The notes below the pieces were generated by a model that was given only the letters and a program-made list of their open reading frames with translations, ran no database searches and had not been told where the DNA came from. This document shows positions 46,919 through 48,487 of a DNA stretch of 64,000 bases, in pieces. Position 1 is the stretch's first letter. The number at the start of each line of letters is the position of its first letter. Made by a program: the position numbers and the translations under genes. The DNA lies in the NCBI GenBank assembly GCA_035426385.1, contig DAOLZQ010000007.1, positions 252 through 64,251 on the forward strand, written 5' to 3'. This stretch comes from Saprospiraceae bacterium. GTDB taxonomy: Bacteria > Bacteroidota > Bacteroidia > Chitinophagales > Saprospiraceae.

Positions 46919-48487
46919 TTATAATTTAATGAATTTTTGAGTCAACTGGTTATCAGAGGTCTTTACCCTTGCGAAATAACTTCCCGCCGGCAATGTATGT
47001 ATATCAATCTCCATTTGATACATTCCATTGTCTGCATACTGATTGCTGTATTTAGAAATAAACACTTTGCCATTAAGATCAATGATATCCACAGTAATGG
47101 GCTGAGCTCTGCTAAGTGTAAAAGGAACTGTAATTTTGTTTTTAGAAGGATCGGGATATATTGGGAAGATCTTGTCCTTCATAAAATCAAGAACCACCTT
47201 TTTATTATCCAGTATATCACCGAATACCAAATTCTCATCACCCGGTTGATACGTCATAAAAATCAGAGGCAAATAATACATCTCATCCGAAGTTTTCTCA
47301 CCCCAAGATACAGTTTTAGGCGGGTTATTTGGATTATAAGGATTATTTGTGGTGTTATCATACGTAGCAAAAGCGTGTATCTGTGACCCTTTCGGAAGTA
47401 CTACGGGCTTTACAAAGTTGTACGCACCCTGCCAGTTGAAGTCCCAATCATTTATTTTCATCACATCAATGCGGGTTTGGTTCGGTAGTACCGCATAGAT
47501 CTCCCACTTTCTGCCCAATAAGTGCATATGGGGTGAGACGCCCAGGAAAGTGACATCATATGGGAGTGTGATGAGTCCATGAAATTCTTTGACCGTATTT
47601 GGTGGTATCACAAATACATCGCCTTGTAAAACACCGGGGATAGGCAACATGACATACGACTGTACGAAGCGCGTAGGAATGTCTTTACTAAAGAATAAAT
47701 TGATAGAAGTACTATCCCATTCATCTGTAGCGGAGGGCGCATAGTGCATTTGCAATAGTAAATCAGAATTTTTAGGGATTCTCATTGCTAATCCATCAGT
47801 ATAAACTATGGGTTTCTGACCGGGTACATATCCCGGTAGTTGATTGTTCAGTTGACCCGATATTGAGCTGCTAGAACCTGAAAATCCATATTCCGGTGTA
47901 GCCGCATCCGCATCTCGCGAGGCTGAAGTAGAATCTGCCCATATCAGAGTGTGATGTACGACCTTCTTGTTCCCCGGTCTAACCTCCAGTGCAGTCAGAT
48001 ATTTGGTTTCAGTCAGGTGAGTTGGAATAACAAAGTAACGATACTCATCGGTACCTGTACCTTTGTGTAAATAGGATTGGGCAAATGAGACTACCATATC
48101 CGGAGTACCGATCTGCGAACCCGTAGGAAATACGGGGAATTGCGGTTCAATATTGGGATCACCTCTTTCCATTCCCTGATCTACCCAGGTGGATATCAGA
48201 TTAATTTCTTCATCTGACAAGAAATTTTGCTTTTGATAGTCACGGATTCCTCTTTCAGGCTTGAAAGGCGGCATATATTTGATCCCGGTGACATACTTAA
48301 TAAAATTTCCCCGATCCTTGACTTCTGCGTAGTTGGTCAACGAAAAAGGCGCGATTTCGCCCGGTCTATGACAAGAACCACATTTATTATATATGATCGG
48401 AGCAATATGCTCTGCAAAAGTAACTTGTTGTGCCTCGGCTTTATAAAAGATGCCAAAGCAAAGAATAGATAATAATAGAATTCGCAT
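46919..48487 (-). CDS. secreted CxxCH-motif / PHM-DBH-type copper monooxygenase-like protein with T9SS sorting domain
   Basis: Signal peptide, then C36-G-S-C-H40 in an [13 protein letters not shown]...MPPF context. The copper ligand pattern is H178-H179, H248, H320-x-H322 and M403 (in TSDEM), plus DWDFNWQ. The C-terminus [14 protein letters not shown]...GSYFARV is a T9SS domain. Confidence 0.7.
   Translation of the reverse strand: [522 protein letters not shown]

Follow-up and report, generated by a model that had tools for sequence, protein, structure and literature searches.

A predicted secreted relative of the PHM/DBH two-copper monooxygenases with a fused cytochrome c domain and a linked redoxin gene in Saprospiraceae and other bacteria

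Peptidylglycine alpha-hydroxylating monooxygenase (PHM), dopamine beta-monooxygenase (DBH), and tyramine beta-monooxygenase (TBM) are the textbook two-copper monooxygenases, enzymes whose two copper sites (CuH and CuM) are not magnetically coupled and which have been studied almost exclusively in animals; debate continues on how electrons cross the long distance between the coppers and on how ascorbate delivers them. Here, we describe a gene from a 64,000-nucleotide stretch of DNA of a Saprospiraceae bacterium (GenBank assembly GCA_035426385.1, contig DAOLZQ010000007.1, positions 252 to 64,251 of the forward strand; this whole stretch is the window, and coordinates are counted from its first letter). 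The gene is a minus-strand open reading frame (ORF; 46919–48487) with an ATG start, 522 amino acid codons, and a stop codon, and its product is composed of a putative signal peptide, a cytochrome c domain, PHM-like N-terminal (CuH) and C-terminal (CuM) domains, and a C-terminal sorting domain of the type IX secretion system (T9SS). A preliminary description of this DNA, made from its letters alone, had read in this ORF a signal peptide, a CGSCH motif, the histidine and methionine residues of two copper sites, and the motif DWDFNWQ, and all of them lie exactly where that description placed them. On balance, we think it probable that the product is a secreted, cytochrome c-fused, PHM-like two-copper monooxygenase that would receive its electrons through haem, would be independent of ascorbate, and would work together with a redoxin encoded by the adjacent gene. 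The haem-copper family to which it belongs is a very large and so far unstudied bacterial version of a familiar kind of enzyme and not a categorically new system.

The kinship with PHM and DBH is visible in comparisons of both profiles and structures. A core profile of 105 diverse family members aligns with rat PHMcc, a reference sequence that we verified to be identical to PDB chain 4e4z_A (PAM residues 45–356), over 246 columns (hhalign probability 97.9%, E value 6e-13), and a narrower profile composed of close homologues, A1, aligns with rat PHM in the same register with an E value of 7.7e-4. An AlphaFold2 model of the window protein, built on 56 homologues (mean pLDDT 86.6, pTM 0.73), contains two consecutive beta-sandwich domains of PHM fold, the N-terminal one at residues ~128–270 (CuH domain; 47678–48106, minus strand, as are all features of this protein) and the C-terminal one at residues ~275–415 (CuM domain; 47243–47665). 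When this model was compared with the PDB using Foldseek, the 31 best matches were all PHM or DBH, with E values as low as 7.5e-14 (PHM) and target TM-scores of 0.54–0.66 for PHM chains and 0.37–0.39 for the longer DBH chains; the matches that follow are unrelated beta-sandwich proteins, for which the best E value is 1.4e-6 and all TM-scores are under 0.2. At the level of the family, Pfam models match both domains: in a sample of 71 diverse members, Cu2_monoox_C matches 44 (best E value 1.8e-8) and Cu2_monooxygen matches 17 (best E value 1.2e-10). We regard the profile and structure comparisons as firm evidence that this homology is real and that the 522-residue protein is a bacterial member of the PHM/DBH superfamily. 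The similarity to the copper monooxygenase families for which the preliminary description had argued is thus significant by hhalign, by Foldseek, and in the family-level Pfam matches.

The six predicted copper ligands are in register with those of PHM in both hhalign alignments, and the PHM/DBH-type two-copper topology that had been proposed from the order of residues resolves into a one-to-one correspondence. For CuH, H178–H179 (47951–47956) correspond to PHM H107–H108 and H248 in LQMHY (47744–47746) corresponds to H172 in LQVHY; for CuM, H320-M-H322 (47522–47530) corresponds to H242-T-H244 and M403 in TSDEM (47279–47281) corresponds to M314 in SSDEM. The local motifs around these residues are shared by the window protein and rat PHM (VVHH and TVHH, LQMHY and LQVHY, PHMHLLG and VHTHHLG, and TSDEM and SSDEM, respectively), as are second-shell residues that are conserved in the family, with Q246 aligned to Q170, E402 to E313, and Q353 to Q272. 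The last of these is part of DWDFNWQ (residues 347–353; 47429–47449), which is near-invariant in the family. The ligands are separated by 69, 72, and 81 residues in the window protein versus 64, 70, and 70 in rat PHM when recomputed on the PDB sequence, and the preliminary description was right about both sets. The 81-residue spacing exceeds that of PHM because of an insert at residues 376–390 (47318–47362) between the HxH and methionine ligands, for which rat PHM has a gap. This insert is specific to the bacterial family and has the consensus Y-D-N-T-x-N-N-P-x-N-P-N-N-P-P; D377, N378, N382, N385, and P386 are invariant in A1, N378 and N382 remain invariant among more distant members (A2), and the insert could form part of a substrate pocket.

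Conservation was measured in the 150 top representatives of the family, which are 34–58% identical to the window protein and nearly all of which extend over the haem domain and the two copper domains. The CuH ligands H178, H179, and H248 are kept in 146, 147, and 149 of these sequences and the CuM ligands H320, H322, and M403 in 148, 148, and 146, leaving 1–4 representatives with a substitution at any ligand position. The other histidines of the core, H141, H157, H303, and H371, which serve as an internal control, are kept in just 0–39 of the 150, and Q246 is kept in 110. That the ligand set is preserved while the control histidines are not argues that selection acts on the ligand set specifically and that the pattern is not due to chance. 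Conservation of the ligands among homologues had been named in advance as a check on their assignment, and at 146–149 of 150 sequences the assignment stands.

Directly N-terminal to the CuH domain is a class I cytochrome c domain (residues ~22–110; 48158–48424) that is helical in the AlphaFold2 model (residues 24–36, 53–68, and 92–103), with the N-terminal helix ending at the CxxCH motif and the C-terminal helix carrying an invariant tryptophan, W101. The haem c attachment motif itself, CGSCH (residues 36–40; 48368–48382), is the sole CxxCH in window ORFs of at least 100 residues and contributes the only two cysteines of the mature protein, C36 and C39, together with the putative proximal ligand H40; the predicted distal ligand is M72 in Y-M-P-P-F (48272–48274). 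C36, C39, and H40 are each present in 146 of the 150 representatives, with gaps in the remainder, and M72 and P73 are present in all 150. All 26 family haem domains that we tested match Cytochrome_CBB3 (best E value 8.8e-7), and 22, 21, and 17 of them match Haem_bd, Cytochrom_C, and PccH, respectively; the haem domain of the window protein on its own scores 21.5 bits against Cytochrome_CBB3 (E value 2.9e-4), which is under the cut-off of 27. A profile of the haem domain weakly finds cytochrome c6 chains (E value 0.016), in which the CxxCH motif and the methionine of the M-P pair are aligned. As judged from these motifs and matches, the haem module appears to be an ordinary class I His/Met cytochrome c and, as such, an electron carrier. 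The preliminary description had likened it to the planctomycete-type PSCyt module, a likeness that we do not retain: PSCyt1 (PF07635) gives no match to the window protein at E values up to 1 and matches one of the 26 family haem domains at an E value of 0.014.

Both ends of the protein carry features of exported proteins. The N-terminus (residues 1–19; 48431–48487) reads as a predicted cleavable Sec signal peptide, with a basic residue, a hydrophobic core, and an A-x-A site, and cleavage is predicted after A-E-A. At the extreme C-terminus, the type A T9SS sorting domain (residues 443–522; 46922–47161), also recognized in the preliminary description, passes both curated cut-offs over residues 443–521 (PF18962, 49.1 bits with a cut-off of 27; TIGR04183, 43.1 bits with a cut-off of 23).

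The family is large and widely distributed. A HMMER scan over 1.84 billion cluster representatives (clusters at 50% identity) identified 13,598 proteins at an E value of 1e-3 or lower and 2,543 at 1e-30 or lower, and a scan of one genome per species identified at least 572 species with a relative, of which the best 80 are the basis of all locus analyses below. These 80 include Bacteroidota (Saprospiraceae, Lewinellaceae, Flavobacteriales, Chitinophagales, and Ignavibacteria/Kapaibacteria-type bins), Latescibacterota, Verrucomicrobiota, Planctomycetota, Acidobacteriota, and Armatimonadota, and the family therefore spans at least six phyla. Some T9SS-domain loci are labelled "Hyphomicrobiales" and some loci with Verrucomicrobiota-like layouts are labelled "Klebsiella sp."; these odd labels (among L012, L048, L056, L066, and L067) are probably the result of mis-binning or mislabelling. 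The T9SS domain is found in 49 of the 80 loci and in none of those labelled Planctomycetota, Verrucomicrobiota, Acidobacteriota, or Armatimonadota, where the match to the window protein ends near residues 403–440. The cell-surface or extracellular chemistry envisaged in the preliminary description would thus apply only to the Bacteroidota branch that carries the T9SS domain and would not extend to the homologues from these four phyla. Among long homologues, seven of the ten scanned have C-terminal TPR arrays. Other architectural variants include a homologue with a Kunitz_BPTI domain (P0132), one with an Mpo1-like domain and an AhpC-TSA domain N-terminal to the core (P0155), two with a tandem duplication of the whole core (P0123 and P0128, the latter also with two redoxin domains), and P0177. 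A protein identical to the window ORF is present in public data (P0001), and a named relative, HQW11031.1, comes from a Saprospiraceae metagenome-assembled genome. In public records, this protein and its relatives appear only as "T9SS type A sorting domain-containing protein", "hypothetical protein", and "mono/diheme cytochrome c family protein", and copper is never mentioned; NCBIfam contains no model for the family core, and searches of the full-text literature yielded no publication on these bacterial PHM-like haem-copper proteins. The silence of the public names on copper and the outcome of the literature searches are consistent with the earlier view that bacterial homologues have no assigned substrate.

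Immediately upstream of the haem-copper gene, at a distance of 10 nucleotides and on the same strand, is a gene for a 184-residue redoxin (48498–49052, minus strand) that exceeds the cut-offs for both Redoxin (28.6 bits with a cut-off of 26.6) and AhpC-TSA (28.6 bits with a cut-off of 26). In 60 of the 80 loci, distributed over all six phyla, a homologue of this partner adjoins the haem-copper gene in the same orientation, usually upstream and at times downstream, and several of the other 20 loci are on truncated contigs; clustering of all ORFs in the 80 loci revealed no further widely recurring neighbour. A single chain joins redoxin and enzyme in 19 of the 150 representatives, with the redoxin sometimes at the N-terminal and sometimes at the C-terminal end, and the Pfam scan confirms such fusions, with AhpC-TSA or Redoxin matches in 19 of the 71 family members. 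Adjacency across phyla and fusion in both orientations are strong evidence that the redoxin and the enzyme form a functional unit.

A multiple sequence comparison of 80 partner sequences reveals near-complete conservation of C50 (48903–48905), of G179–C180 (C180, 48513–48515), and of the cis-proline P120, each in 79 of the 80, with D105 and Y134-x-G136-R also kept. The second cysteine of the CxxC motif (CPIC in the window) is present in 29 of the 80 and is otherwise serine (30), alanine (13), or threonine (6), and a role for the partner as a classical dithiol reductase of the ResA/CcmG type is rejected because this cysteine is not conserved. The nearest solved structures are 2ywi, 2cvb/2ywo (TTHA0593), and 3u5r, which match the partner over nearly its full length with E values of 4.6e-7 to 3.3e-4; the partner is also weakly similar to ResA, StoA, and MauD. 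With 2ywi, 2cvb, and 3u5r the partner has in common the first CxxC cysteine, a C-terminal I-G-C, and the same cysteine pattern, as well as a Y-R/H-G-x-hydrophobic-D motif (YRGKLDNQ in the partner versus YRGQLDD, YHGRVND, and YHGQFDD in the PDB relatives). From its sequence, the partner is predicted to be a secreted thioredoxin-fold protein of the PRX_like1 (CDD cd02969)/TlpA-like kind. The mechanism of PRX_like1 proteins has been described as unclear and the function of 2YWI, 2CVB/2YWO, and 3U5R as unassigned (PMC3514251); the N-terminal cysteine has been discussed as peroxidatic and the C-terminal one as a possible resolving cysteine (PMC3091736, PMC3514251). The partner differs from the PRX_like1 structures in its apparent secretion and in its tie to the haem-copper enzyme, as a linked gene or as part of the same chain, and the cysteine of the cyanobacterial PRX_like1 motif AACTPDF (PMC3514251) is absent from it, ASITPEV being found in that place. 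We suggest that C50 and C180 could be paired for redox chemistry or could bind Cu(I). In Verrucomicrobiota-type loci (L055:1390-4826 and L060:3973-7362, also L057, L065, L066, and L067), the redoxin and haem-copper pair is located downstream, on the same strand, of a gene for an extracytoplasmic function (ECF) sigma factor (Sigma70_r2/r4_2), and a small ORF between the sigma factor and the pair has sub-threshold similarity to LTXXQ/Metal_resist (Spy/CpxP-like), a layout that hints at an envelope- or metal-stress regulon.

Compared with PHM, the catalytic core of PAM (PDB 1PHM, 1OPM, 3MLL, and 4E4Z), the window protein has the same two-domain beta-sandwich fold, the motifs VHH, LQxHY, HxHxLG, and SDEM, and conserved equivalents of Q170 and Q272, but it is only ~16–20% identical, its core is without cysteines or disulfides, and it contains the Asn/Pro-rich 15-residue insert before M403. 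It also differs in being bacterial, in its N-terminal fusion to cytochrome c, in its predicted export by the T9SS, and in having no PAL partner; a PAL-like lyase was not seen among the conserved neighbours of the 80 loci or among the fused domains of the ten long homologues. DBH, TBM, and MOXD1 (PDB 4ZEL) share the catalytic core and ligand set (Foldseek E value 1.2e-11 to 4ZEL), and DBH resembles the window protein further in having an extra domain N-terminal to the CuH domain. In DBH, however, this is a DOMON domain, accompanied by a C-terminal dimerisation domain, whereas in the window protein it is a c-type cytochrome, and DBH uses ascorbate and nothing points to a phenylethylamine substrate for the window protein. 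A small haem domain that is tethered to or serves a copper centre requiring single electrons outside the cytoplasm is also found in cellobiose dehydrogenase, which feeds lytic polysaccharide monooxygenases, and in Sco-cytochrome c fusions. The window protein may follow the same logic by analogy, but the folds and copper sites are unrelated, and cellobiose dehydrogenase uses haem of the b type and passes its electrons to another enzyme. Judged by its sequence, the window protein differs from all characterised PHM/DBH members in its fused c-type cytochrome, linked redoxin, bacterial origin, and predicted T9SS export.

We propose the following scheme for how the metal and haem sites are filled, which way electrons flow, what hydroxylase reaction follows, and what the partner contributes. 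The protein would be exported by Sec and, after cleavage of its signal peptide, would be in the periplasm, where haem would be attached covalently at C36 and C39 with H40 and M72 as axial ligands and two copper ions would be bound, one by H178, H179, and H248 (CuH) and the other by H320, H322, and M403 (CuM). The cytochrome c domain would accept single electrons from an outside donor and pass them to CuH, in place of the ascorbate used by the eukaryotic enzymes; electrons would then be transferred from CuH to CuM, which would activate O2 and hydroxylate the substrate at a C-H bond. The substrate would not be the glycine-extended C-terminus of a peptide bound in the manner of PHM. The adjacent thioredoxin-fold protein would cooperate with the enzyme as a two-electron (dithiol) source or regulator, or else as a periplasmic assembly factor. 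In Bacteroidota, this organism among them, the folded holo-enzyme would subsequently be exported by the T9SS and released or anchored on the cell surface; the T9SS carries folded periplasmic cargo, and prior attachment of haem is therefore compatible with this export. More specifically, we raise the tentative possibility that electrons pass from a redoxin dithiol to haem c and then to CuH and CuM, a self-contained ascorbate-independent chain that would serve the PHM-type hydroxylation of C-H bonds in peptides or proteins of the envelope or the extracellular space across the six phyla. A dithiol would supply exactly the two electrons required for each turnover, the fusions favour a permanent partnership of redoxin and enzyme, and the TPR fusions are a weak hint of protein or peptide substrates.

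Several observations weigh against a haem-fed PHM-like monooxygenase working with a redoxin, or against parts of this proposal. The window protein alone scores 22.9 bits against Cu2_monoox_C (PF03712) at residues 312–403 (E value 6.6e-5), 0.1 bit short of the cut-off of 23, and the model for the N-terminal domain, Cu2_monooxygen (PF01082), finds no match in it. Searches of the PDB with the protein sequence or with profile A1 match only the T9SS domain and do not reach PHM, so that the homology becomes clear only with Foldseek and the more diverse profile, and in the Foldseek comparisons the rmsd is 5–9 Å, the arrangement of the domains relative to one another being only loosely defined. The carboxylate clamp of PHM, R240, N316, and Y318, is replaced by S318, Y405, and P407 in the window protein, and in the family the R240 site is Y, A, F, or S and never predominantly R, the N316 site is variable, and the Y318 site is Y, F, or W. 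We therefore reject the assignment of the protein as an orthologue of peptidylglycine hydroxylase (PHM, EC 1.14.17.3), and the absence of the peptidylglycine-binding residues implies that its substrate differs from that of PHM. A further difficulty concerns the redoxin: wherever both genes occur together in Bacteroidota (36 loci), the T9SS domain is on the enzyme and never on the redoxin, which would place the two proteins in different compartments after export. This separation disfavours the redoxin as the steady-state electron donor in Bacteroidota and favours a role in assembly, and it leaves the extracellular electron source of the Bacteroidota enzyme unexplained.

These 36 loci also provide an argument for an alternative in which the enzyme is the same and the redoxin is solely a periplasmic assembly factor, electrons being provided in the working enzyme by something else, such as a soluble cytochrome or an environmental reductant (ascorbate, Fe(II), or thiols), given that the two proteins would share a compartment only before export. 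The redoxin could keep the cysteines of the CxxCH motif reduced so that haem can be attached, like ResA and CcsX, or hand over Cu(I) via C50 and C180, like Sco and TlpA. It is well established that some thioredoxin-fold proteins take part in maturing cytochromes c and copper centres (ResA/CcmG, TlpA, and Sco), and the weak similarity of the redoxin to ResA, StoA, and MauD is in keeping with such a role. However, the second cysteine of the CxxC motif, which a ResA-type dithiol reductase requires, is found in just the 29 of 80 partners noted above, a permanent fusion at either end of the enzyme (19 of the 150 representatives) is unusual for a maturation factor that acts transiently, and the general machinery for cytochrome c maturation normally handles every cytochrome. 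On this evidence, we consider a role restricted to assembly rather doubtful.

The same tight pairing and fusion could be explained if the two proteins were a thiol-oxidising or peroxide-handling pair with no hydroxylase activity, in which electrons pass from C50 and C180 to the haem, to the coppers, and finally to O2 or H2O2. The redoxin itself, or proteins oxidised by it, would then be the real substrate, and the pair would constitute a periplasmic disulfide-generating or stress-defence module. In favour of this reading, the partner belongs with the peroxiredoxin-like PRX_like1 proteins, for whose N- and C-terminal cysteines peroxidatic and resolving roles have been considered (PMC3091736, PMC3514251). 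The position of the Verrucomicrobiota-type pair after an ECF sigma factor and an LTXXQ/Metal_resist-like ORF resembles an envelope-stress layout, but the LTXXQ/Metal_resist matches are below threshold, and the residues of the peroxiredoxin catalytic triad are not evident in the partner. Furthermore, the enzyme retains the full CuM set, including the methionine, and the equivalents of Q170 and Q272, which are typical of enzymes that hydroxylate a substrate. In PHM, the reduction of O2 is tightly coupled to substrate hydroxylation, and this coupling also argues against a pair devoted to thiols or peroxide, which we judge improbable. Least probable is that the protein has kept the PHM fold without being a catalyst and serves at the surface, for example to bind copper or haem or to shuttle electrons. 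Adhesins and binding proteins are common among T9SS cargo, but inactivated relatives of enzymes usually lose ligands, substitutions are confined here to 1–4 of the 150 representatives, and the near-complete conservation of the six ligands and of the second-shell residues shared with PHM across six phyla and down to identities of ~35% points to selection on a working two-copper site.

Outside the redoxin and haem-copper genes, the window shows little that recurs with them. The next gene downstream, separated from the haem-copper gene by 8 nucleotides, encodes a 365-residue protein (45813–46910, minus strand) with a T9SS C-terminal domain and no other recognisable domain, which is found beside the haem-copper gene in three of the 80 loci; another T9SS C-terminal domain is encoded by the ORF at 35693–37372 (plus strand). 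A run of genes on the minus strand (39462–44119) resembles the gliding ABC transporter GldA/GldF/GldG and is composed of an ABC_tran gene (42971–44119), an ABC-2 permease gene (42234–42965), and a gene with ABC_transp_aux and DUF7088 domains (40492–42225), followed by an ORF with a weak match to DUF4340 (39462–40466). The downstream T9SS protein and the MFS, MarC, and GldA/F/G genes of the window are unlinked to the haem-copper gene elsewhere (0–8 of the 80 loci). The two additional T9SS-domain ORFs and the Gld-like set are indirect hints that this genome may encode a T9SS apparatus. Divergent from the redoxin gene is a DUF3467 gene (49160–49477, plus strand), which overlaps the listed start of a 253-residue ORF with no family match (49365–50126, plus strand); the true start of this ORF is probably further downstream than listed.

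Recognition of the haem-copper family re-labels thousands of genes that have gone unnoticed in present annotation and points to oxidative modification by common environmental bacteria, either in their periplasm or at their surface. The linked redoxin also gives a first functional context to the PRX_like1 thioredoxin-fold group, for which structures have been solved. A bacterial relative of PHM and DBH with a tethered cytochrome c would offer a naturally wired and spectroscopically visible system in which to study the entry of electrons into CuH, one that would be easy to express and mutate and that would show two-copper chemistry without ascorbate. If the chain from redoxin dithiol through haem c to the two coppers is true, the family would be the first class of prokaryotic PHM-type two-copper monooxygenases in which the entry route for electrons is built in and defined, and it would represent a new bacterial post-translational or extracellular oxidation chemistry.

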